DNA of 64,000 nt. Origin: Candidatus Hydrogenedentota bacterium. Its GTDB lineage: Bacteria > Hydrogenedentota > Hydrogenedentia > Hydrogenedentales > SLHB01. The translations under genes and the position numbers were made by a program. How positions within the stretch are numbered: the stretch's first letter is position 1; every line of letters begins with the position of its first letter. Under the pieces are notes generated by a model. That model ran no database searches. It was not told the DNA's origin and saw nothing but the letters and a program-made list of their open reading frames with translations. The stretch is taken from the NCBI GenBank assembly GCA_013359265.1, contig JABWCD010000015.1, positions 40,329 to 104,328 of the forward strand, given 5' to 3'. Below are positions 4,495 through 56,780 of this stretch, piece by piece.

Positions 4495-4872
4495 GTGAAA
4501 TCGCCTAAAATCCTAGTGGTGGACGACGAGCCGGATGTGGTGATGTTTATCGCGCGGACCCTGAACAGCGAAGGGTTTGACGTGATGAGCGCGTACGACG
4601 GAATCAGCGCGCTGGATCTTGCGGAGAACGAGACGCCGGACCTTATCGTCCTGGACATCATGATGCCGATGATGAGCGGGTACGAGGTGTGCGAACAGTT
4701 GAAGGCGAACCCGCAGACGCAGCACATTCCGATATTGTGCGTGTCGTCGGCGCACAATCCGAATGCGCGCGATCGCTCGCTCGAAGCCGGCGCGGCGACC
4801 CTGCTCCTTAAACCGTTCTCGCCGGCGGAGCTTGTCGCGCAGATCAAGCGGCACCTGCCTCAGCCGGTGTAG
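4495..4872 (+). CDS. Single-domain response regulator (CheY-like receiver)
   Basis: ILVVDDEPDV...DLIVLDIMMPMMSG...LLLKPF: the receiver fold with conserved Asp and Lys positions. Confidence 0.85.
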   Translation: MKSPKILVVDDEPDVVMFIARTLNSEGFDVMSAYDGISALDLAENETPDLIVLDIMMPMMSGYEVCEQLKANPQTQHIPILCVSSAHNPNARDRSLEAGAATLLLKPFSPAELVAQIKRHLPQPV

Positions 4873-14069: not shown

Positions 14070-14315
14070 GATGCCATTAACTACCGGTGTGTTGAAATCT
14101 TCTGGCGCGGCGATGGCGCGTGTGTGGTCTGCGAATTTTAACGTACACCAGTAGAGGTACTGACTGGGTAGTGGCCTAGGGTGTACCGATGTGCTTGCCG
14201 CGGGGGCGCTTTTCGCAAGCAGAGCGGTACGGGACGCACCATTGCGTGAACAACGGAGGATGTGCTGTACGCCGCGAGGCAGTATGGCGCAATGTTCTCA
14301 CGCGGGAGAGGTTTC

Positions 14316-17300
14316 ATGCGGTCCGGCAAGCTTGTGATTTTTGCAGTGGGGGTGGCTTTTGTGTGCGCCGCGTCGGCGCCGTACGCGCTGGCGGATACCG
14401 AAGATGCGGTGCGCGGCGTGCTGACGACGATGTCCGGCCCTAACATGCTGGACAATCCCCGCAGTTCGACAACCCCGGAGGGCTACCTGCGCCACGTCGC
14501 CGCGCCTTCCGGTAACGCATTTCAACCAAGTCCATCGGCAAAGAAGGCGGGCGCGCCAGACGCGATCGCCAAGTCGTTCTTGAAAGAACACGACGCTGCG
14601 TTCGGAATTCACGCCGGGGTGACGTTCACAACCAACCGTGTGAAGTCGGAAAACGCGCGCACGTTCGTCAAATTGGATCAGGTGTACAAAGGCGTCCCGG
14701 TGTTCGGCGCGCAGGCGATTGTTCAGATGAAGCCCGACGGCGGAATTGTTTCCATCCTGAGCGACATAATGCGTGACGCTCCGCGCGTGTACTCGGGTGA
14801 GTTGTCGCTGACTCCATTGTTGGATGGCGACGAAGCGGCGATTCTAGCGGCCGGGGTACTGGAAGACGAAAACCCGGGCATCGACTTTGAGACAAACGAT
14901 CCCGCGCTATACTTGTATGCGCCTCCGGTGATCGGCGCAACAGGCGCAGTGCGATTGGTCTACATCGTTGAAGCGAGCAACGCAGGCGCCGCCGTGGTGA
15001 TCGCGGAGCGGATATTGATAGACGCGCACAGCGGCGCAACGGCCCTGCGCATACCCATGATCCTCGAGGCGAAGAATCGCACCATCTACGACGCGGAGAA
15101 CGTGCCGGACGCAATCGGAACTTTGCGGCGCGCGGAAGGTCAGCCCGCCACAAACATCCACGATGTGGATGCCGCGTACGACTTTTACGGCGACACGTAT
15201 GATTTCTACTTATCCGAACACGGCCGCGACAGCATAGACGGCGCGGGTATGACGATGGATGCCACCGTGCGCTTTTGCTATGGATTCTGCCCTTTCCGAA
15301 ATGCGTTCTGGGACGGCGTGCGGATGTTCTTCGGCGAAGGCTGGGTGACTGACGACGTCGTCGGCCACGAACTTACACACGGCGTAACGCAACATGAGTC
15401 GAATTTAATCTATTCGTATGAGTCAGGCGCGCTTAATGAATCATTCTCAGATGTTTGGGGCGAATTTATCGATTTGGCGAATGCAGCCGGAACGGATACG
15501 CCGGAAGTCAAGTGGCTAGTTGGTGAGGACATTGCGAATCGCGGAGCGATTCGCAGCATGAAAAACCCGCCGGCCATGTCCGATCCGGACACGTATTTGG
15601 GGCCATTCTGGGTATTCGATTCGAGTGACAATGGAGGTGTCCACACGAATTCCGGCGTGAGCAACAAACTGTGCTATCTCCTAACCGACGGCGACACGTT
15701 CAATGGCTACATCATCGACCCCATGGGCATTCCGACCGTGGCCGAACTTTACTATGAGTGCCAGACCAATCTCCTCGGCGAGGGTTCGGATTACCCCGAC
15801 TTCGGCAACCAGTTGATTGTCGCGGCGGAGAACCTCGGGCTGAACGATGACGAAATCGACAATGTTGAGCGGGCGCTGTACGCGACGCGGATTCTCGAGT
15901 TTAAGTTCGATCCGCTGCGCCATTTCCGCGCCGCGGGCCGGTCGGGTGACAGCCGCGTCGCCTTGACGTGGAAAAACCCGACAGGTGGCGATTTTACTGG
16001 AGTAGATGTTGTCCGCAATTCCGACCGGTTCCCGGTGAACAATACCGATGGCACCGTTATCGCCTCGGTCATCAATGGGGCTGAAAGCCTGGTGGATACG
16101 CCGGGCGGCGGCGCGGGGACGGACTTTTATTACGGCATCTTTCCCCGTAGTGGCAGCTTCCCAGGCAACCTACCGCTGTTCGCGCGCGGGACAGTCGGGG
16201 TTGATGTGAACTTTTTGACTGAAGCGTTTTCGAACGGGACTGACCTATCGAACACGCAGATTACGATCGTTCCCGCCGGCGCAGTGCCGCTTATCGGCCC
16301 CGCTACGGAAAAGCCTGAGGTGTACTTTAACTACACGACGTACGACGCGCACGGTGCAAGCGCGGTAAAAATTGCGCCCAATTTTGACGGGACGCTTCCT
16401 GTAGCGAAGGAGGACTACTTCTTGCTCTCGATGGCGGATGACGGGGCGGTCGCATTCGAATCGAGTATTCCGATCCCGTTTTTTGGACGATTAATGGGTG
16501 ACCTGATTGTCTCGGCGAACGGGTTCATTGCCGCGGCGACCGACCAGTACGAGGCAGTGACCCTTAACCCAACCATAAGCCGAACGAGCCACTTTGCGAC
16601 GCCGCGAATTTCGTTCCTCTACTCCGATCTGGACCCGAGGAGCGGCGGAGAGGTTTGGGCGCGCACACTCGATGATCGACTGGTTATCACATTCGAAGAG
16701 GTACCGTCTTTTGATTCGAGCAACCTTGGCACACCCGGCGAAACGTTTGGAAACACGGTGCAGTGCGAGTTGTTCTATGGCGGACAAATCCGGTTCACAT
16801 ATCTTGCCCTTACCGCCGAGCGCGCCGTCGTCGGCATCTCCGACGGAAACGGCGTACCGCTGGACGTCAACGACATACTCAACGGCCAAAGCGCGGACCC
16901 GGCCGATTCCAACCTGAATTCATTGCCGGATTCGGTAGGGCTCGAGTTGCAACCGGTACCGATTGCGTTCCTCGAACCGGGCACGGTCCACGAGTTCACG
17001 GCAACGGCGCTTTCGACGCAGGGTCCACCGACCTACGCGATGTTCCCGTTGACTGAGCTCGGTGTACCTCAGATGACTGGGGCAACGCTCGACGCACAGA
17101 CTGGGGAGTTCAGTTGGGACACGACAGGCGTCTCAGACGGTGTGTACGGCATGATCCTGTGTGCCGCTGCGGGCCAGCTCACGTCGTGCCAGATTATCAC
17201 CGCTATTGTTGTTACATCAGATGTATTGCCGCAGGCGACGAATCTGTCGCTCACGCCGACCTCGCCGACGGACAGCGACAATCTCGTTGCGAGCTACACG

Positions 17301-17708
17301 TACGTGCATCCGTCTTTGCCGCAGGGTCCGTCCACGATCTACTGGTTTAAGGACAATGCCATCGTGCCGGCGTACACGAACCTGACGGTCGTGCCGCGCG
17401 CGGCGACAAAGCCGGGCGACTTATGGTACTTCCAGGTGCTTCCGGCGACCGTTTCCATCGGGACGTATGGCGGGCAACCCATATACCTGCGCGGCGCCCC
17501 GGTACTATCGAACGCGGTAAGCGTCGGGGCCGACATGAAGCTGGACACCAACGGCGACGGCAAGGTGAACTCGGTTGATCTGCAACTCGTGGTGCGCGGA
17601 TTGTTGGGTACATCCGAGCAGGGCATCGATCCGGACGTGAACGGCGACGGGAAGGAAGACGCCTCAGACGTTCAGACGATGATCAACTATATACTCGAGA
17701 AGCGTTAG
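14316..17708 (+). CDS. Secreted thermolysin-like (M4) zinc metalloprotease with a long beta-rich C-terminal extension and a terminal dockerin type-I module
   Basis: Signal peptide MRSGKLVIFAVGVAFVCAASAPYALA. HEXXH (VVGHELTHGV) plus the downstream GALNESFSD Glu ligand. The C-terminus has two Ca-loop repeats, DTNGDGKVNSVD and DVNGDGKEDASD. The listed ORF starts at GTG 14262; ATG 14316 is preferred because of the signal peptide. Confidence 0.85.
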   Translation: MRSGKLVIFAVGVAFVCAASAPYALADTEDAVRGVLTTMSGPNMLDNPRSSTTPEGYLRHVAAPSGNAFQPSPSAKKAGAPDAIAKSFLKEHDAAFGIHAGVTFTTNRVKSENARTFVKLDQVYKGVPVFGAQAIVQMKPDGGIVSILSDIMRDAPRVYSGELSLTPLLDGDEAAILAAGVLEDENPGIDFETNDPALYLYAPPVIGATGAVRLVYIVEASNAGAAVVIAERILIDAHSGATALRIPMILEAKNRTIYDAENVPDAIGTLRRAEGQPATNIHDVDAAYDFYGDTYDFYLSEHGRDSIDGAGMTMDATVRFCYGFCPFRNAFWDGVRMFFGEGWVTDDVVGHELTHGVTQHESNLIYSYESGALNESFSDVWGEFIDLANAAGTDTPEVKWLVGEDIANRGAIRSMKNPPAMSDPDTYLGPFWVFDSSDNGGVHTNSGVSNKLCYLLTDGDTFNGYIIDPMGIPTVAELYYECQTNLLGEGSDYPDFGNQLIVAAENLGLNDDEIDNVERALYATRILEFKFDPLRHFRAAGRSGDSRVALTWKNPTGGDFTGVDVVRNSDRFPVNNTDGTVIASVINGAESLVDTPGGGAGTDFYYGIFPRSGSFPGNLPLFARGTVGVDVNFLTEAFSNGTDLSNTQITIVPAGAVPLIGPATEKPEVYFNYTTYDAHGASAVKIAPNFDGTLPVAKEDYFLLSMADDGAVAFESSIPIPFFGRLMGDLIVSANGFIAAATDQYEAVTLNPTISRTSHFATPRISFLYSDLDPRSGGEVWARTLDDRLVITFEEVPSFDSSNLGTPGETFGNTVQCELFYGGQIRFTYLALTAERAVVGISDGNGVPLDVNDILNGQSADPADSNLNSLPDSVGLELQPVPIAFLEPGTVHEFTATALSTQGPPTYAMFPLTELGVPQMTGATLDAQTGEFSWDTTGVSDGVYGMILCAAAGQLTSCQIITAIVVTSDVLPQATNLSLTPTSPTDSDNLVASYTYVHPSLPQGPSTIYWFKDNAIVPAYTNLTVVPRAATKPGDLWYFQVLPATVSIGTYGGQPIYLRGAPVLSNAVSVGADMKLDTNGDGKVNSVDLQLVVRGLLGTSEQGIDPDVNGDGKEDASDVQTMINYILEKR

Positions 17709-28605: not shown

Positions 28606-28677
28606 TGTCCGTCTCCGGTTCTGCGCGTGACTCCAACCGAGGTCTTGGCGTAGAGTACGCACTCGCGAGCCCGGTTG

Positions 28678-31347
28678 ATGCAAGTGCACCCACACAAAGA
28701 CAAAGTCACCGTTCTAATGCGCCGGTTGTTCGGCCGGTTGCGTCACGCGGCAGTGGTTTTCGCCGCGTCGCTGTTTACCGTTTCCGTTCCAAGTATCGCG
28801 GCGGAACGCAGCATGCCCATCAAGGTCGGCATTTACGAGAACCGGCCCATGGTGTTCCTCGACGACGACACGCGGCCCGCGGGGTTGCAGGTCGATATCG
28901 TTTCCGAGATTGCCAAAGCGCGAAAGTGGCCGATCGAATTTGTATACGGCACGTGGCAGGACTGCCTCGCCCGGCTGGAAGACGGCGAGATCGACGTCCT
29001 GCTCGATATTGGGTATTCGGACGAACGCGCCCAGCGATTCGATTTTACGTCCGAGTCTCTGTTTTCGACGTGGGCGCAGGTCTATGTGCCCCCGGGCTCG
29101 ACGTTGCTTGGCATACCGGACCTCGAGGGGAAACACATTGCGGTGATGCGCGGCGACGTGCACTACGCGGCGCTTCAGCGGTTATTGCGCGACTTCGGCA
29201 TCGCCGTGCACTACGTCGAGTATGACGACTACAAAGACCTGATGCAGGCGGTCGAGCATAAGCGTGTGGACGCAGGGTTGTTCAGCCGCATCGCGGGCTT
29301 GCAGCTCGAAAGCGACTACGGAGTGCGCCGCAGCTCGATCGTGCTCGATCCGATCCAGGTGCGTATCGCGTTTCCCAAGGGCAAGAATGGAGACATTCGC
29401 GACGCGATTGACGCCGACCTGCGCCGCATGAAGCGCGACCCGAATTCGGCTTATAGCGTGGCGATGGACAAATGGCTCGGAAACGTCCCGCTGATGGAGT
29501 GGCCATGGTGGTGGAAGTGGGCGGTGCTGGGTCTAGCGGCCTTTGCGTTGATAGGCGTCGGCGTCAACTCGCTACTGCGGCTCGAGGTACGCCGCAAGAC
29601 GTCGCAATTGACCGCTAAGAACGTCGAGCTCGAGCAGGAGATCGCTTCGCGCGCACGCGTCGAGTCCTTGCTTCAGGCCGGGCGTGAACGATTGTCGACG
29701 CAAAGCAGAGCGCTCATGACGCTTGCGCGAAGCGACGCGATCGACCGTGGCGATCTCGATGCCGCGCTCAGGCAAATCACGACGGCCGCGGCGCAGACGC
29801 TTGACGTCGATCGGTCGAGCGTGTGGATTGCGGAGTCGGACCTCTCCGCGATTCGCTGTATCTGCCTATTCGTTCGGTCAAAGGGCGAGTTTTCCAAAGG
29901 CGCCGAGCTGGCGCGAACCGATTACCCCATCTATTTCAGGGCGCTCGCCGAGAACCGAATCATTGCCGCGTCGGACGCCGCGCGCGATCCGAGCACATAC
30001 GAGTTCGCGGATAGTTACCTCGCGCCGTTGGGAATCACATCCATGCTGGACGCGCCGGTCCGCACAGGACAGCGGCTCATCGGGATTCTGTGCAACGAGC
30101 ATACCGGCGCCGCGCGGGAATGGAACTTGGAGGAAGAAAACTTCGCTGCATCGCTTGCGGATTTTGTCGCGCTCGCGCTGGAAGCGCACGAGCGACAAAC
30201 GGCCGAGGCGCGCCTGCGCGAGAGCGAGGAACGCAACCGTCTCATCATCGAGAAGGCGCTGGACGCGGTCATCATCGCGGACAATCGGGGTACCGTGATC
30301 GGCTGGAACGCCAAGGCGGAGGAAGTCTTCGGTTACGCGCGCGATGAAGCGATCGGACAGCCGGTTATTTCGCTCGTTGTGCCGGAGTCCATCCACGAGA
30401 TTGTTGCGCAGGAGTTTCTCGATATCCTTCGCTCCGGCCGCGGGCGTACGCGGCGCGATGTGCTGGCGAAGCGAAAAAACGGCGAGGAGTTTTACGCCGA
30501 GTTTTCGGTTTCGGCGTCTCGCGAGGGGCGGCGGTTTATCTATACCTCGTTCGTCCGCGACATCACGGAACAAAAGCGCGCGCAGGAGATGAAGGAGAAG
30601 CTCCACCAAATTGAGACCGAACTCGAACTTGCGCGAACGATTCAGCGATCGTTTCTGCCCCAACAATTTCCGGCGTTTCCGCATCGATGCGAATTCGAGG
30701 TTTACGCGGAAATGATTCCCGCCGCAAACGTCGGGGGCGACTTCTACGACTTTTATCTTCTCGACGACGAAAGGCTCGCCTTTGCGATCGGCGACGTGTC
30801 GGGCAAAGGCGTGCCCGGTGCACTGGTAATGGCAATGACCCTCACAATTTTGAAAGCGACGGCGGCTTCGACGCCGTCGGTATCGGACTGCGTTTCGCAG
30901 GTTAATCGGCTGTTGTGCAAGGAGAACGAGGCGGCGTTCTTCGTGACCTTGTTCTACGGCGTGCTGCATGTTCCGACCGGGAAGATTACCTTCGCGAACG
31001 CAGGGCATCCTCCCCCCTTTCGCGTATCCTCAACGCGGGGCGTCAAGCCGCTTGATGGAACTGGCGGGTTGATACTTGGTGTATTCGAGGAAGCACAGTA
31101 CAGTGAGGGCGAGATCGCGCTGAAGTCGGGGGAGAGCGTCCTGTTGTTCACGGACGGCGTAACCGAGGCCATGAACGAATCCAACATCCTGTATACGGAG
31201 GAACGGCTCGAACAGACGCTGCGCGGCGTTTCGGGAATGCCTGCGACGCCGCTGGTAGCGCACGTGGTGAAGGACGTTGAATCGTTCGCCGGCGACGCGC
31301 CGCGGCACGACGACATAACGCTGCTGGCGTTGCGGTATTTGAGTTGA
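28678..31347 (+). CDS. Multidomain sensor: periplasmic solute-binding (SBP family 3-like) domain - TM - GAF - PAS - PP2C/SpoIIE-type Ser/Thr phosphatase (RsbU-like)
   Basis: The N-terminus has a signal/TM plus an SBP_bac_3-like region, then a second TM (WWWKWAVLGLAAFALIGV). GAF-like region (~330-480). PAS (IIEKALDAVIIADNRGTVIGWN). PP2C motifs GGDFYDF and GDVSGKG. Confidence 0.75.
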   Translation: MQVHPHKDKVTVLMRRLFGRLRHAAVVFAASLFTVSVPSIAAERSMPIKVGIYENRPMVFLDDDTRPAGLQVDIVSEIAKARKWPIEFVYGTWQDCLARLEDGEIDVLLDIGYSDERAQRFDFTSESLFSTWAQVYVPPGSTLLGIPDLEGKHIAVMRGDVHYAALQRLLRDFGIAVHYVEYDDYKDLMQAVEHKRVDAGLFSRIAGLQLESDYGVRRSSIVLDPIQVRIAFPKGKNGDIRDAIDADLRRMKRDPNSAYSVAMDKWLGNVPLMEWPWWWKWAVLGLAAFALIGVGVNSLLRLEVRRKTSQLTAKNVELEQEIASRARVESLLQAGRERLSTQSRALMTLARSDAIDRGDLDAALRQITTAAAQTLDVDRSSVWIAESDLSAIRCICLFVRSKGEFSKGAELARTDYPIYFRALAENRIIAASDAARDPSTYEFADSYLAPLGITSMLDAPVRTGQRLIGILCNEHTGAAREWNLEEENFAASLADFVALALEAHERQTAEARLRESEERNRLIIEKALDAVIIADNRGTVIGWNAKAEEVFGYARDEAIGQPVISLVVPESIHEIVAQEFLDILRSGRGRTRRDVLAKRKNGEEFYAEFSVSASREGRRFIYTSFVRDITEQKRAQEMKEKLHQIETELELARTIQRSFLPQQFPAFPHRCEFEVYAEMIPAANVGGDFYDFYLLDDERLAFAIGDVSGKGVPGALVMAMTLTILKATAASTPSVSDCVSQVNRLLCKENEAAFFVTLFYGVLHVPTGKITFANAGHPPPFRVSSTRGVKPLDGTGGLILGVFEEAQYSEGEIALKSGESVLLFTDGVTEAMNESNILYTEERLEQTLRGVSGMPATPLVAHVVKDVESFAGDAPRHDDITLLALRYLS

Positions 31348-49866: not shown

Positions 49867-50089
49867 CACAGTTCCATCCTTCTGGGAAAGTATTGCCGAT
49901 TACCTGTCGATGTCGATGGAAAAATTTGCCGATTTTTCTTGCTTCATCTAAAGCATTCTGCTAGCATAGGGCAAGATATGCCACTATGCCTGTGAATACC
50001 ACTATATATTGTGCGATGAAGCGAATTGGCGAGTCGGCACGGTTCGTGCCTTGCTGGCAGTGGGAATCTCGGCACGGAGTTCAGGGGAC

Positions 50090-53000
50090 ATGAGCGGACC
50101 TAACACCGGTAATCCGGCGAGCGGTGGCTCATCGCCGGTTCCTCGTTTCATCGACCAAGACGAGATAGACGCAGCCTTGGCGCAGGCGCAGTCGGTGACC
50201 AAGTCAGCCCCACCGCCCGGCAACGTGAAGCTTAGGCCCGAGGACGTCCCTGCCCCGCCACCGTTCGTGCCCGGAAATGACCTCGGCCTCTTGTCCCAGA
50301 ACGAGATCGACGCGGTACTGCATGGTCAAAAGTCGGGATCGCAATCCTCGACGCAGCCGCCGCAGGAATCCCAGGCTGTTGACCAGTCGGAGATCGACCG
50401 GCTTTTGGCAGCAGCCGAAGCGGACCCGACAAACTTCGCTGCCGCCGAACAGGCATTGCGAAAAGTCGAACAGGCCGATATCGACGCCTTGGCCGCGTCG
50501 GGCAACGCAGCGGATGCGTTGGGCGACGACACCCCGCTGGCGGGTATGGACCAGAACAATGCCACTCTGACTCAATCGGAATTGGACAAGCTGATTTCCG
50601 GTGGCGAACCGGAACAGCAATTGGGCGGCGGCGAACTGGACGCCGTGCTGTCGCCCATCGAACCGGTCGATCCGTCTGAGGCGGCAATTAGCGTGGATGC
50701 CGCGCCCGTAACGCTGGGGCAAGCCGAGCTGGAGGCCCTGCTTGCTGCGCACCCGATGGAGCGGGCCGAACCCGTCGCGCCACTACCCATCGCGACGCGG
50801 ACGGATGAAGACGACCCCGTCGAACGTGCGGCGCGCGAGAACGCGCAGGCGAACGTTGGCCTTGAGAACCTTGCCGCCGCCGTGCCGGACCCGACGGCAG
50901 GCGAACAGCCGCTCGCGCAAGACTTGATCGATTCGCTCTTGGCGCAGGCTGCGCAGGCCGCGGCGACGCCGGAAGCGCCACCCAAGGCCGCATCGGCCCC
51001 GCAAGGCGTGGACCTGAAACAAGGCGAGGCCGAGGCCGTCGCGCTTTCGGACGACGATTTTGCCGATTTAGGCATCTCGATGCCGACTCCGCAAGTGTCG
51101 CTCGTCAGTGAGCCGGCCGACGAGGCGCGGGAGCCGGCAGAAGACGCCTCTCCCGTCGTGCAACGGCGGCTCAATCGCGATGCAAAGTTCCCCGCGAAGG
51201 TCGCGGCGTCCATCGCGGCCGCGCTTGTGGTGGGAACGGGTACCTTTGCGTACTTATGGTCACAGCGGGCCACTCCGGAAACACTCGAAAAACCGGCCGC
51301 CGAAGTGGAACACCGCGACCTGGAAGAAGTTATTGCAGTCGCGCGCGAGTTGATGGGAAAGGGGGAATACGTGAGCGCGATGCGGGAGCTGGGCGCGGCA
51401 ATCCGCCATGCGGAACCGGGTCTGCTGCTGAACGAAGCGCGCTTCTTGCACGTCGAGGCCGGCTATCGATCGTTGCCGCCAAAGCCAAAAGCGGTCGATA
51501 TCGAGACGGTGCTGAAGAACATCGAGGACGTCATCGCGCTCGCGCCAAAGTACTCCCGCAACCCGGAGGCGCTCGAGTGGAAGGCGGAGTTGTACGAACG
51601 AACCGGCGCCATCACCACGGCGCGGGACACGTATGAGCGCATCCTGACAAACTATCCCACCACACCAAACCGGGACCACACGCTTCTGCAGCTCGCGCGG
51701 CTCGCGTTTCAATTGAATTACTTCGATGACGCTGAGAAGGCCTTGACGAGCATCGTTCAGGATTTTCCCGATTCGCCGCACAAGAGCGAAGCGCAGATGA
51801 TGCTCGCGAAGTGCTACGAGTCCACGGGCCGCGTGGCCGACGCAATCGCGACGTATGCGACGGTAGCGGCGGAGCGGACGGAATCGCGTGTCGGCGCGGA
51901 AGCGGCACTTGCGCTTTCGCGAATTGCCGATGCGTCGGGCGACACGCCAGGCGCGATCCGGGCGCTCGAGAACCGGCTGCAAACGTCGACAACAGTGGAC
52001 GGCAATGACGCCGTGTACGTGGAGCTCGCAAAGGCCTACCGCAAGGCCGGCAAACCGGCTGACGCCGTGCGCGTGGCGCGTGAGTTGCTCAATTTCTTTC
52101 CTGATAGTTCGCGCGTGCCTGAGGCTGTTGTCGAGCTGACCAAGGCCATGGACGAGAGCGGCGATTCCCGGCAGGCGATTGACCTGGCGCAACAGGCGGC
52201 GGAGCGTTTCGACAAGAACGCGGCCGTCGCAAAGAACCGCGCGCTGATGCTGAGCAAGACGAACGATACGCGGGCCGCGGCCGAAGCGCTGGTGAAGGCC
52301 GACGAACTGGGCGCGAACGATCCCGAGGTCTTGCTCGACGCCGGCCGGAAGTATTCGGAACTTGCGGAAAAAGAAAAAGCGCTGGAAGTATTCAACAAGG
52401 TCATCGAGAAATATCCGGACACTGAGCAGGCAGTCGAGGCAGGCGTCGCATTGGGCCGCGAGCAGTATGCGGCCGGCGATATCGCGGGCGCGATCGATCG
52501 GCTTATGGCGCTGACCGAAGCGCCCAATGCGTCCAGCAAGCAACTCGCCATTCAGTCCGCCCTCGGCGATATCTATACGGACCTCGGCCTGAAGAAGCGT
52601 GCGACCGCCGCGTACGAACAGGTCGCCTCGCTCGCAACCGATCCGGAAACGCTCGCGCACGCGGCGACTGTGTTGCTCGAAAATGGGGCGATCGGTTCCG
52701 CGCTTCCCGTGATTCGTAAAGTGGACACGGCACGGTTGCCGTCAAAAGCCGGTTTCGATTTTCTCATGGCGCAAGGCCGCGCCATGCTTGACCTCGACGC
52801 GGTGGCGGCGCTCGACAAGATGCAACAGGCGTTCGAGCTGTATCCCGTCGAGCGGACACCCGAAGACTTCGAGTACCTCGTGCGGGCCTGCCTCGAAACC
52901 GGCAAGACGGCGCACGCGCGCATCCTCGTGAGCGATTTCGACACCTACGTCGAGAAACACCCGGAAGAACGAGAGCGATTGCAGCGAACCGCCGCGCTGT

Positions 53001-53326
53001 GGGGCGACGCATTGTTTAACGCGGGCGATTACCGCGGAGCGTTGGACGCGTACGCGCTCGCAGTCCCACCGGCGCCGGAACCCGCGCAGGACGACGAGGA
53101 ACCCGCCGGCGAGGCGACCGCGCCGTCGGGCGATGCGCTTTGGGCCACGTTTCAGCGTGCGAACGCGATGCTGAAACTGGACGATTACGCGAGCAGCATT
53201 CCCATCCTGGACGAGCTCGCGTCGGGCGATACGCCTTACGCGGAGGATGCGCGTATCAAGGCGGAGTATGCGCGGCTCGAACAACGCTTGCGCGGCGGCG
53301 GCGCCGTGATCGCCGAGGGCGGGTAG
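50090..53326 (+). CDS. Large membrane-anchored TPR-repeat protein with an N-terminal low-complexity region carrying ~7 tandem 'SQxEIDAxL' motifs (FliM-N/CheY-docking-like)
   Basis: Motifs: FIDQDEIDAALAQ, LSQNEIDAVLHGQ, DQSEIDRLLAAA, EQADIDALAAS, TQSELDKLISGG, GGGELDAVLSP, GQAELEALLAAH. Single TM helix VAASIAAALVVGTGTFAYLW at ~380-400. Then >600 aa of TPR-like helical repeats. The listed ORF begins at TTG 50009; the first ATG is 50090. Confidence 0.75.
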   Translation: MSGPNTGNPASGGSSPVPRFIDQDEIDAALAQAQSVTKSAPPPGNVKLRPEDVPAPPPFVPGNDLGLLSQNEIDAVLHGQKSGSQSSTQPPQESQAVDQSEIDRLLAAAEADPTNFAAAEQALRKVEQADIDALAASGNAADALGDDTPLAGMDQNNATLTQSELDKLISGGEPEQQLGGGELDAVLSPIEPVDPSEAAISVDAAPVTLGQAELEALLAAHPMERAEPVAPLPIATRTDEDDPVERAARENAQANVGLENLAAAVPDPTAGEQPLAQDLIDSLLAQAAQAAATPEAPPKAASAPQGVDLKQGEAEAVALSDDDFADLGISMPTPQVSLVSEPADEAREPAEDASPVVQRRLNRDAKFPAKVAASIAAALVVGTGTFAYLWSQRATPETLEKPAAEVEHRDLEEVIAVARELMGKGEYVSAMRELGAAIRHAEPGLLLNEARFLHVEAGYRSLPPKPKAVDIETVLKNIEDVIALAPKYSRNPEALEWKAELYERTGAITTARDTYERILTNYPTTPNRDHTLLQLARLAFQLNYFDDAEKALTSIVQDFPDSPHKSEAQMMLAKCYESTGRVADAIATYATVAAERTESRVGAEAALALSRIADASGDTPGAIRALENRLQTSTTVDGNDAVYVELAKAYRKAGKPADAVRVARELLNFFPDSSRVPEAVVELTKAMDESGDSRQAIDLAQQAAERFDKNAAVAKNRALMLSKTNDTRAAAEALVKADELGANDPEVLLDAGRKYSELAEKEKALEVFNKVIEKYPDTEQAVEAGVALGREQYAAGDIAGAIDRLMALTEAPNASSKQLAIQSALGDIYTDLGLKKRATAAYEQVASLATDPETLAHAATVLLENGAIGSALPVIRKVDTARLPSKAGFDFLMAQGRAMLDLDAVAALDKMQQAFELYPVERTPEDFEYLVRACLETGKTAHARILVSDFDTYVEKHPEERERLQRTAALWGDALFNAGDYRGALDAYALAVPPAPEPAQDDEEPAGEATAPSGDALWATFQRANAMLKLDDYASSIPILDELASGDTPYAEDARIKAEYARLEQRLRGGGAVIAEGG

Positions 53327-53758
53327 ATGACGGGCATCGTCGAGCGCATCAGCGACTATTTCGCGCGGCAAATCGCACTTTACAAGCAAATGCTCGCGGA
53401 ACAGGACCAAATTCTCGCGCTGCTGAACGCGGGCGAATTGGAGGACGCCGAGAAGCTCGCGTCCGCCCATGCGCGCGAAAGCGCCGCCCTCGAACAGGAG
53501 TTTCACGCGCTGCTGCGCGAATGGAATTCGAAGTTGCACGGCGCGGAAGAGTATGCGCCGGTCCGCGCGCTCGCCGCGGAGGCGGCGCGCCTCGCCGGGC
53601 GCCTCGAGGAATTCGTAACCGTCGCAGCGGGTAACGCGCGCGAACGGCGCGAGGCCGTAAAACGCGAGTGGGAGGCGATCCGGCGCGGACAAAACGTAAT
53701 CGACCGGTACAGGACCATCGACCCCAGTGAATTCGATCGCATCGACAAACGCGCCTAG
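53327..53758 (+). CDS. Small all-helical hypothetical protein (FlgN-like/chaperone-like), translationally coupled to the TPR gene
   Basis: TAG-ATG junction with the upstream gene. 143 aa. Heptad-rich, acidic. Confidence 0.55.
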   Translation: MTGIVERISDYFARQIALYKQMLAEQDQILALLNAGELEDAEKLASAHARESAALEQEFHALLREWNSKLHGAEEYAPVRALAAEAARLAGRLEEFVTVAAGNARERREAVKREWEAIRRGQNVIDRYRTIDPSEFDRIDKRA

Positions 53759-54923
53759 CGCGCAAGGATTGACGCCGTTTGGGCAGGACGCGGACATCCG
53801 CGCCCTCGCGGACGCGTTCGAAATCTTCACACGCACGACGCAGACGATGGAAGAGTCCTATCGCCGGCTCGAAGCGCGCCTCCAAGAGCTCGATCGCGAA
53901 CTGGAATCGAAGAACCGCGAACTCGCAATCACGACCGACTACCTTAGTTCGATCATGGAAAGCATGTCCGACGGCGTCATTGCGGTTGACACGCTGGGAA
54001 TCGTGACCACGTTCAACACCGCGGCGAGTCGCGTGCTCGGCTACGATGCGCGCGACGCCGTCGGCCAGCCGTTTATCGACGTGTTTGGGCGCGAGTTTGC
54101 CGTGCCGTCCGGCCGGCACGGGCGGGAATTGCGCGCGGAGGACGGACGCGCGGTGCGGGTCAGCGAATGCGATTCGCCGCTGTTCGATCGATCGCTACGG
54201 CGCATCGGCACAGTAAAGGTTTTTCAGGACCAAACCGAGATCGAATCCCTGCGCACACGGCTACAACATCAGGATCGCCTTGCGGCGATTGGACAGATGG
54301 CGGCGACGGTCGCGCACGAAATTCGCAATCCGCTCGGGGGCATTCGCGGGTTTGCCGCGTTGCTTGCGCGCGATATTGTCGACGAGGATCCCCGCGCGCG
54401 GCTCGTCGAGAAAATCCTTGCTGGCGCAAAGGCACTCGAACGCGTCGTCACCGATCTGCTCGAGTTTACGCGGCCGCTGCAACTCCGGCGGCAATCGGTT
54501 CCGCTGCGCGAATTGGTCACGTCCGCGCTCAGCTATGTGGACCGTGGCGCACGGACTCTATCGATCGAGAATGCGGTAAGTGGGTCTGTGCATGTTGCCG
54601 GCGACCCCGACAAGCTGAGGCAGGTGCTGCTGAATTTGCTGTTGAACGCCGTGCAAAGCATCCAGCAGGACGGTCAGATTCGGATTGAATCTGCGCTGGT
54701 GGATGGATGGATCGAACTGCGCGTAATCGACGACGGGTGTGGCATGACGCCGCGGCAATTGGAACAGATATTTTCGCCGTTCTTCACGACGAAGGAAAAA
54801 GGCACAGGACTTGGGCTGGCAATCGCGTTGAAAATCGTCGAGGCACATGGAGGTCGTGTAGCGGCGACGAGCGCGCCGGGCGCGGGGTCCACCTTTACTA
54901 TCGCGTTACCGCGGGCGGAGTGA
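53727..54923 (+). CDS. PAS-domain sensor histidine kinase (NtrB/AtoS-like, cytoplasmic)
   Basis: PAS (IMESMSDGVIAVD). H-box HEIRNPLGGIRG. N, G1 and G2 boxes (GTGLGLAI). GTG start overlaps the upstream ORF; the start is uncertain. Confidence 0.8.
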   Translation: MNSIASTNAPSAQGLTPFGQDADIRALADAFEIFTRTTQTMEESYRRLEARLQELDRELESKNRELAITTDYLSSIMESMSDGVIAVDTLGIVTTFNTAASRVLGYDARDAVGQPFIDVFGREFAVPSGRHGRELRAEDGRAVRVSECDSPLFDRSLRRIGTVKVFQDQTEIESLRTRLQHQDRLAAIGQMAATVAHEIRNPLGGIRGFAALLARDIVDEDPRARLVEKILAGAKALERVVTDLLEFTRPLQLRRQSVPLRELVTSALSYVDRGARTLSIENAVSGSVHVAGDPDKLRQVLLNLLLNAVQSIQQDGQIRIESALVDGWIELRVIDDGCGMTPRQLEQIFSPFFTTKEKGTGLGLAIALKIVEAHGGRVAATSAPGAGSTFTIALPRAE

Positions 54924-54925
54924 AT

Positions 54926-56281
<1,356 letters not shown>

Positions 56282-56291
56282 CCGGTAGCGG

Positions 56292-56780
56292 TCATTCGAG
56301 TGACCGCGTGATTTTTCCCGCGTGTACTTGGCAAATGGCGAGTGCGAGTGCGTCAGCAGCGTCGTCGGGGCGAGGCGCCGCGTCGAGGTTGAGCAGAATC
56401 TTGATCATGTTCTGCACTTGCTGCTTCGTCGCCTTGCCGTAGCCGACAACGGCGTTCTTCACCTCCAGCGGGCTGAACTCGCCGATCGGCAGGCCCGCCA
56501 TTTCCGCGGCGAGCGCGATGACGCCGCGCGATTGCGCCACGGAAATTCCGGTGGTCACGTTGCGCGAGAAGTAGAGCTTTTCTACCGCGACGGCGTCGGG
56601 GCGGTATTCAGCGATGAGGCGCGCGGTTTCCTCGTGGATCGTGTGCAGGCGCGCGGAGAAGGGCGTATTCGCGGGGGTCGAGATGACGCCGTGCGCAATG
56701 TGCGTGAGCCGCGTGCCCTTGCCCTCGACGACACCGTAGCCGGTCGTCGCGGTACCCGGGTCGAACCCCAGCACGCGCAT
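56292..56780 (-). CDS. ruvC: Holliday junction resolvase RuvC
   Basis: MRVLGFDPGTATTGYGV N-terminus and catalytic acidic residues. 162 aa. Confidence 0.9.
   Translation of the reverse strand: MRVLGFDPGTATTGYGVVEGKGTRLTHIAHGVISTPANTPFSARLHTIHEETARLIAEYRPDAVAVEKLYFSRNVTTGISVAQSRGVIALAAEMAGLPIGEFSPLEVKNAVVGYGKATKQQVQNMIKILLNLDAAPRPDDAADALALAICQVHAGKITRSLE

Follow-up and report, generated by a model that had tools for sequence, protein, structure and literature searches.

FliM-N-type motif arrays on a membrane-anchored tetratricopeptide repeat protein encoded in a conserved four-gene operon of Candidatus Hydrogenedentota

The 64,000-nucleotide stretch of Candidatus Hydrogenedentota DNA analyzed here (assembly GCA_013359265.1, contig JABWCD010000015.1; hereafter the window) contains, at 50090..53326, a gene for a 1078-aa tetratricopeptide repeat (TPR) protein whose N-terminal tail bears an array of short motifs resembling the peptide found at the N-terminus of the flagellar switch protein FliM (FliM-N). 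This gene, which starts with the ATG at 50090, and all features of its locus described below lie on the plus strand. The encoded protein is identical to the database entry P0001, 'MAG: tetratricopeptide repeat protein [Candidatus Hydrogenedentes bacterium]' (MAG, metagenome-assembled genome). It is composed of a disordered tail, a single transmembrane (TM) helix (51191..51262, aa 368-391) and a C-terminal TPR superhelix (51320..53290, aa 411-1067). In the AlphaFold2 model, calculated with a 19-sequence family alignment, residues 1-367 have predicted local distance difference test (pLDDT) values below 50 except for short isolated helices, whereas the TPR part forms an all-helical solenoid of ~660 aa with pLDDT above 90. 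The tail is acidic and biased in composition to A, P, L, D and E; an earlier reading made from the letters alone (the sequence-only reading) had correctly described it as disordered but had put its length at ~240 residues, and it in fact extends over ~365.

The flanks of the TM helix carry +5/-1 charges on the N side and a net negative charge on the C side, with the strongly basic residues RRLNRDAKFPAK preceding the helix and acidic residues following it. By the positive-inside rule, this basic N side and acidic C side predict an N-in topology with a cytoplasmic tail, and the TPR domain is presumed to be periplasmic, in agreement with the sequence-only reading, which had proposed a membrane-anchored TPR protein with the tail on the cytoplasmic side. 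Only TPR models match the protein in Pfam and NCBIfam, the best being periplasmic types such as YbgF/CpoB and BamD, and its matches among PDB sequences are limited to designed consensus TPRs. No catalytic phosphatase domain of CheZ, CheC, CheX or FliY was found by Pfam and NCBIfam, and Pfam detected neither a FliM, SpoA or CheC domain nor a LysM or FimV domain.

Eight copies of the motif, seven of the type hxQxE[IL]DxLL and a variant eighth, are distributed along the tail at spacings of 18-66 residues. Motif 1, IDQDEIDAAL (50150..50179, aa 21-30; predicted helix 23-35), is followed by motif 2, LSQNEIDAVL (50291..50320, aa 68-77; helix 70-78), the copy nearest to FliM-N, and by motif 3, VDQSEIDRLL (50378..50407, aa 97-106; helix 99-110), after which comes a conserved EPTNFAAAE segment. 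The middle of the array is formed by motif 4, VEQADIDALA (50465..50494, aa 126-135; helix 128-137), motif 5, LTQSELDKLI (50567..50596, aa 160-169; helix 162-169), and motif 6, LGGGELDAVL (50621..50650, aa 178-187), which is kept in orthologues and has no predicted helix. Motif 7, LGQAELEALL (50714..50743, aa 209-218; helix 211-219), precedes a conserved AAHPM segment. The last copy, motif 8, LAQDLIDSLL (50912..50941, aa 275-284; helix 278-291), has Leu in place of Glu; it is invariant in close orthologues, reads LSQDxLDxLL in distant ones and is the most conserved copy across the phylum. The short helices of the structure model thus coincide with seven of the eight motifs. All seven repeats listed in the sequence-only reading are present, and motif 8 was absent from its list.

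Between motifs 7 and 8 lies a conserved box, DPVERAARENAQANVGLENLAAAVP (50813..50887, aa 242-266; predicted helix 243-263), which contains no EIDAL motif. Its segment ERAARENAQANVGxENLAAAVP is found phylum-wide, and the 'VGxENLAAA' core followed by the last motif, LSQDxLDxLL, occurs in all members of the target family. Because every member keeps both, the last copy and the 'VGxENLAAA' box look like the core of the tail, with a valency that appears to be tuned through the copies upstream of them. Additional conserved islands without the EIDAL motif are present in the tail at 51044-51079 (LSDDDFADLGIS), 51098-51124 (VSLVSEPAD) and 51149-51172 (SPVVQRRL); these non-EIDAL islands are possibly further linear motifs for other partners. 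A ParB-N-like, ParA-stimulating identity of the motifs was also considered and was rejected by reasoning from the sequence, the conserved basic residue of such peptides being absent.

The compositional bias of the tail would suit an explanation in which the motifs are generic acidic amphipathic helices without a partner, serving as an entropic spacer or charge brush, and their likeness to FliM-N is coincidental. Composition alone does not reproduce the array, however: the pattern [QGSE]x[ED][IL][DE]xx[LIVA] was observed seven times in the 365-residue tail, as compared with a mean of 0.14 and a maximum of 4 in 20,000 composition-preserving shuffles. Furthermore, each copy occupies the same position in ten orthologues (58-75% identity) while the linkers diverge, motif columns averaging 0.74 identity to the window protein and all other columns of the tail 0.59, and it is the Q, E, I/L, D and LL positions that are conserved. 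TRF detected no DNA-level tandem repeat in 50000-51400, so that a recent slippage repeat was rejected as the origin of the copies in the window gene, and the copies are therefore old and maintained at the protein level.

The FliM-N segment has the published consensus LSQXEIDALL; it is disordered and folds when phosphorylated CheY (CheY-P) binds (PMC6700473). For our motif family, 48 aligned copies yield the logo [LIV]-x-Q-x-E-[IL]-D-A-[LV]-L-A, which agrees with this consensus at every conserved position. A 30-column profile built solely from the repeats of the target family was run against 1.84 billion representative proteins, and at a cut-off of E<=1e-3 it retrieved 247 proteins (clusters), each with multiple copies and one with 25. 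The best 147 of the 247 were characterized, and the following counts refer to these. Arrays occur on a FliM (P0163, 2 copies), on two FliN proteins (P0152 and P0107, 4 copies), on a FliY with CheC and FliMN_C domains (P0155, 5 copies), on CheX/CheC-domain proteins and, at the C-terminus, on the CheZ-like P0105. In addition, 33 clusters consist of a motif array, a TM helix and a part of ~160 aa, at least five of them matching Pfam FliL; ~19 clusters are homologous to the TPR domain of the target (E 1e-84 to 1e-139), 12 have a ~230-aa C-terminal domain and 3 have Ig/cadherin domains.

FliM, FliN, FliY, CheX/CheC and CheZ are partners of CheY-P, and their retrieval by a profile made only from the tail repeats indicates that these repeats are genuine FliM-N or 'EIDAL'-type docking motifs. 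The FliM-N likeness proposed in the sequence-only reading is thus upheld by the agreement in consensus, by the disordered context and by the CheY-P partners among the matches. The motif is specifically a flagellar/chemotaxis motif, and the multi-copy array is a recurrent natural architecture. Most of the clusters that bear such arrays are uncharacterized bitopic proteins having FliL-like or TPR domains and encoded in flagellar loci. Many of the 247 matches have no recognizable domain, as would suit a generic tail; by comparison, proteins and loci of flagella and chemotaxis are over-represented among the matches. Taken with the motif statistics and the position-specific conservation, and with copies kept where no DNA-level repeat exists, this enrichment makes a partnerless generic tail very improbable.

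Comparison with the known carriers defines what is particular to the target. FliM, a protein of the C-ring, begins with its single copy at the very N-terminal end, whereas the target has eight internal copies and is anchored in the membrane; the two are alike in consensus, in a disordered context with helical propensity and in their association with flagellar genes. FliY/FliN, CheC/CheX and CheZ join the peptide to a phosphatase or switch domain, while in the target it is combined with membrane anchoring by a TM helix and with a TPR domain on the periplasmic side, so that the protein has neither a catalytic nor a rotor function.

A second membrane-anchored family bears comparable arrays. In its ~33 clusters, 6-16 FliM-N-type motifs precede a single TM helix, which is followed by a FliL-like domain of ~160 aa, and two members, at L007 10001-11554 (P0034) and L030 8001-10406 (P0023), are encoded in flagellar operons just after flhA-flhF-flhG-fliA and before fliK. 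One of these two loci is from a Desulfobacterales MAG, and the FliM encoded in L007 retains its own N-terminal copy of the motif. No description of this FliL-like multi-motif family was found in the literature searched, nor was any description of multi-copy EIDAL arrays found in the full-text literature, the papers found covering the single-copy motif of FliM, FliY and FliN. The statement in the sequence-only reading that tandem multimerization of the motif is undescribed thus needs qualification: no paper on it was found, but among sequences such arrays are common, with 247 clusters and up to 25 copies in one protein. The motif itself is known; its array on membrane-anchored non-rotor proteins and the Hydrogenedentota operon appear to be undescribed.

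The longest array observed is that of P0020 (L029 8001-11003), a 1000-aa protein with 25 copies of TLGQ[ND]EIDALL or TLDQSELDALL at a 23-residue period and no recognizable domain. Its gene adjoins an MptE-like gene, which we take to be possibly of the Maf type, as well as genes for an HDOD protein and hybrid histidine kinases.

Within the target family, the number of recognizable copies in the tail varies from ~2 to 15 between lineages. At L018 7969-9301, 14 near-identical DLSQDDLDALIA units form a DNA-level tandem array with a 78-90 nt period, a recent expansion which shows that in some lineages the copy number grows by recent duplication. Such variation in copy number, and the L018 expansion, are as expected for an element whose valency is tuned.

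The TPR gene is the first of four tightly coupled genes. A 143-aa four-helix-bundle protein with a FlgN-like fold (53327..53758) starts at the base after the TPR stop, followed by a soluble PAS-HisKA-HATPase histidine kinase (53727..54923) and by a REC-sigma54 AAA+-HTH_8 response regulator (54926..56281). A terminator-like hairpin with a T-run (56288..56307) lies directly after the regulator gene and is the probable end of the operon; ruvC and yebC come next. At the upstream end, 40 nt separate the ATG from the conserved palindrome GGCACGGTTCGTGCC (50036..50050), which is also compatible with the sigma54 -24 GG/-12 GC spacing, and a second conserved palindrome, GGCAAGATATGCC, lies at 49970..49982. 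Both GGCA...TGCC palindromes recur at the orthologous loci: they are conserved in L001, L002 and L008 and in part in L009, with a compensatory change in L001 (GGCATG..CATGCC), and they may represent a candidate promoter, an activator/operator site or a 5' untranslated region hairpin.

For the 143-aa neighbor, a fold search gave FlgN PA3352 (2fup) and a FlgN-FliJ fusion (8ftx) as the best structural matches, and its fold is a helical bundle of the FlgN type. Its Pfam FlgN score of 19.1 bits is below the gathering cut-off of 30.5; at E<=0.1, Pfam FlgN matches 4 of the 19 members of the family, with weak FliT matches as well, and a profile of the protein against PDB sequences returned just insignificant coiled-coil matches. 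The likeness to the FlgN and FliT chaperones consists in a four-helix bundle, but this is a common fold. The kinase, which has no TM helix and no hydrophobic segment in its sequence, is FlrB/FleS-like in domain architecture and position, and the regulator is FlrC/FleR-like in position. By hidden Markov model, the regulator is nearest to AtoC/ZraR/NtrC, without assignment to FleR or FlgR.

Our locus scan, with one genome per species and a 6-sequence alignment, added 21 loci, of which almost all carry Candidatus Hydrogenedentota in their titles. The 26 loci, nearly all with Hydrogenedentota in the title, span 31-77% identity in the TPR part, and tblastn shows the order TPR gene, small open reading frame, kinase, regulator to be kept in ~23 of them, with the regulator 66-90% and the kinase 51-79% identical across loci. 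The four-gene order is seen both in the close orthologues L001 and L002 and in the distant L003-L006 (~30-40% TPR-domain identity). The sequence-only reading had linked the tail to the neighboring sigma54 regulator; this link corresponds to a real operon conserved across the phylum, the flagellar character of which it had not recorded.

This flagellar character is most evident in three loci. In L015, L025 and L028, ~110-190 nt past the regulator gene, a sigma54-type promoter sequence, TGGCAT-N5-TTGCT, is followed by flgB-flgC-fliE-fliF-fliG; the sites, at 12716 in L015, 5924 in L025 and 15246 in L028, lie 37-90 nt upstream of flgB. This arrangement suggests that flgBC-fliEFG may be direct targets of the regulator of the operon in these three loci. 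L003 and L005 have flagellin genes at a distance of 3-9 kb from the operon; sigma54 promoters, looked for upstream of these flagellin genes, were not found. Homologues of FliM, FliN, FliP, FlhA, FlhF, FlhG and FliA were found neither in any of the TPR loci nor in the window. In Pseudomonas and Vibrio, fleSR and flrBC encode a soluble kinase and a sigma54 regulator immediately upstream of fliEFG. Given that in L015, L025 and L028 the regulator directly precedes a sigma54-type promoter and flgBC-fliEFG, the operon is best read, from gene content and order, as a flagellar regulatory module.

Structurally, the FleS/FleR (Pseudomonas), FlrB/FlrC (Vibrio) and FlgS/FlgR (Campylobacter) pairs resemble the operon in combining a soluble PAS kinase with a REC-sigma54-HTH regulator. 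The fleSR/flrBC layout is matched in L015, L025 and L028, whereas the window has ruvC and yebC instead. In addition, the FleS/FleR, FlrB/FlrC and FlgS/FlgR operons have no counterpart of the upstream TPR-EIDAL and FlgN-like genes.

Such tight coupling raises the possibility that the tail docks a product of its own operon, namely the receiver of the regulator, the kinase or the FlgN-like protein, to give a three- or four-component system with the TPR protein as the sensor and scaffold that sequesters or presents the regulator. The stop codon of the TPR gene directly adjoins the start of its neighbor, the two genes that follow are likewise overlapping or abutting, and the unit is conserved phylum-wide. 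A sensing domain in the membrane or periplasm is absent from the kinase itself, and the receiver of the regulator, as read from the sequence, has the aromatic switch residue (FDYIMKPF) that is used by CheY-type peptide docking. However, the alpha4-beta5-alpha5 face serves dimerization in NtrC-type regulators; arrays are also found on many proteins without an adjacent two-component system, for example FliN and the FliL-like family; and members with very few motifs still have the kinase and the regulator. We therefore regard docking to the operon's own products as quite unlikely.

The most likely reading, which has close to an even chance in our judgment, is that the tail is a multivalent docking strip, tethered to the membrane, for a CheY-type receiver protein, namely CheY-P. 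We favor it because CheY-P docking is the common denominator of the proteins known to carry the motif, and because the motif has been multiplied on CheY-P phosphatases and switch proteins, where extra docking sites have an obvious meaning. Next to the membrane and the flagellar base, the tail would bind several CheY-P molecules at once or a single one with high avidity, and would thereby buffer or concentrate the CheY-P signal. In Hydrogenedentota, the kinase and sigma54 activator would correspond to the flagellar checkpoint system FleS/FleR (FlrB/FlrC), into which the TPR protein would probably also feed envelope or flagellar assembly information through its operon partners. The analysis establishes what the motif is, that the tail is disordered, that motifs and operon are conserved and that related genomes link the operon to flagellar genes; from this we infer the binding of the motifs to a receiver domain, the identity of this receiver as CheY-P and the coupling to the kinase. 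The multivalent docking idea of the sequence-only reading remains plausible on these sequence grounds and now has a flagellar context.

CheY-P is not the sole candidate for docking, and this is one of several points that weigh against the CheY-P docking strip, since the FliM/FliY motif also docks the MinD-like ATPase FlhG. Second, some members of the target family have just 2-3 degenerate copies, which argues that a large array is not essential to the core function of the family. Third, no flagellar or che gene is present in the 64-kb window apart from the TPR operon. Fourth, the likeness of the TPR part to flagellar scaffolds is weak and generic. Foldseek matched the target to 9hmf_K, a TPR chain from the periplasmic motor scaffold of C. 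jejuni and the only bacterial structure in the top 50, with an E-value of 4e-12 and a TM-score of 0.2-0.27 amid eukaryotic TPR matches, and the NCBIfam FlcA match reached 20 bits versus a cut-off of 300; this likeness may be shared TPR architecture alone.

As the main rival reading, the array could instead dock FlhG (FleN), a MinD-like ATPase responsible for the number and placement of flagella, so that its dimers would be recruited or titrated at the membrane and control of flagellar number would be coupled to the downstream-encoded sigma54 cascade. FlhG binds the FliM N-terminus in monotrichous species and FliY in Bacillus, that is, the same FliM/FliY N-terminal region, and it modulates the sigma54 activator FlrA/FleQ (PMC12826062). 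The reading of the operon as a sigma54 regulatory module is in line with FlhG docking, as is the encoding of the FliL-like multi-motif family right after flhF-flhG-fliA in two unrelated loci. By comparison, the profile also retrieves multi-copy CheZ-, CheX/CheC- and FliY-type proteins. Their known partner is CheY-P, and to our knowledge they have no link to FlhG. Moreover, none of the 26 loci has an flhG gene close to the TPR operon, and in those with gene tables that were read, a gene resembling FlrA/FleQ was not noted. FlhG docking appears to us improbable.

A broader proposal, possible but in our view doubtful, encompasses both membrane-anchored families. In it, FliM-N arrays of the TPR type in Hydrogenedentota and of the FliL-like type in Desulfobacterales and others would constitute a widespread and hitherto undescribed class of flagellar accessory proteins that tether many CheY-P (or FlhG) molecules by the motor. 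Hydrogenedentota would further possess a four-component checkpoint, in which the periplasmic TPR sensor, the FlgN-like chaperone and the soluble kinase set the activity of the sigma54 regulator that activates rod and MS-ring genes, so that the chemotaxis state would be linked with assembly.

PflA/PflB of C. jejuni and FlcA of spirochaetes are, like the target, large TPR proteins in a flagellar context, and we know of no EIDAL tail in any of them. HubP and FimV resemble the target in being single-pass membrane proteins with a long acidic, repeat-bearing cytoplasmic region, which could serve to recruit factors of the flagellum or of chemotaxis. The order is reversed, however, since in HubP a LysM domain occupies the N-terminal, periplasmic side and the repeats come after the TM helix, as compared with tail, TM helix and TPR domain in the target, and the repeat sequence of HubP/FimV differs from the motifs described here.

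The FliM N-terminal peptide is among the best-studied short docking motifs in bacterial signaling and is usually regarded as a feature that the rotor carries once. Its occurrence in arrays of 4-25 copies on proteins that are anchored in the membrane, do not belong to the rotor and are encoded in flagellar loci suggests an unrecognized layer of control, which might consist of local CheY-P buffers, sinks or concentrators or of platforms for FlhG recruitment, and which would bear on the ultrasensitivity of the motor, the spatial distribution of CheY-P and the coupling of flagellar number to gene expression. The analysis also provides a first functional context, flagellar and sigma54-regulated, for a phylum-wide operon of the uncultured Hydrogenedentota. 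In addition, a simple repeat profile yields hundreds of candidates, some of them in lineages with cultured relatives.

Elsewhere in the window, a single-domain receiver is encoded at 4495-4872, which the sequence-only reading had taken for a CheY and linked to the tail. The gene is 45 kb away and adjoins genes for a CDP-alcohol phosphatidyltransferase and EngA, a lipid and GTPase context; in a by-eye alignment on the K-P-F motif, a Leu of the protein falls on Tyr106, the aromatic switch residue of CheY. This receiver is probably not a chemotaxis CheY, and it was rejected as the partner of the tail on distance, gene context and the absent aromatic switch residue. Two further genes of the window, unrelated to the tail, encode a multidomain sensor phosphatase of SBP_bac_3-GAF-PAS-SpoIIE (PP2C) architecture (28675-31347) and an M4 (thermolysin-like) peptidase of 1148 aa that carries a dockerin domain at its C-terminus (14262-17708).

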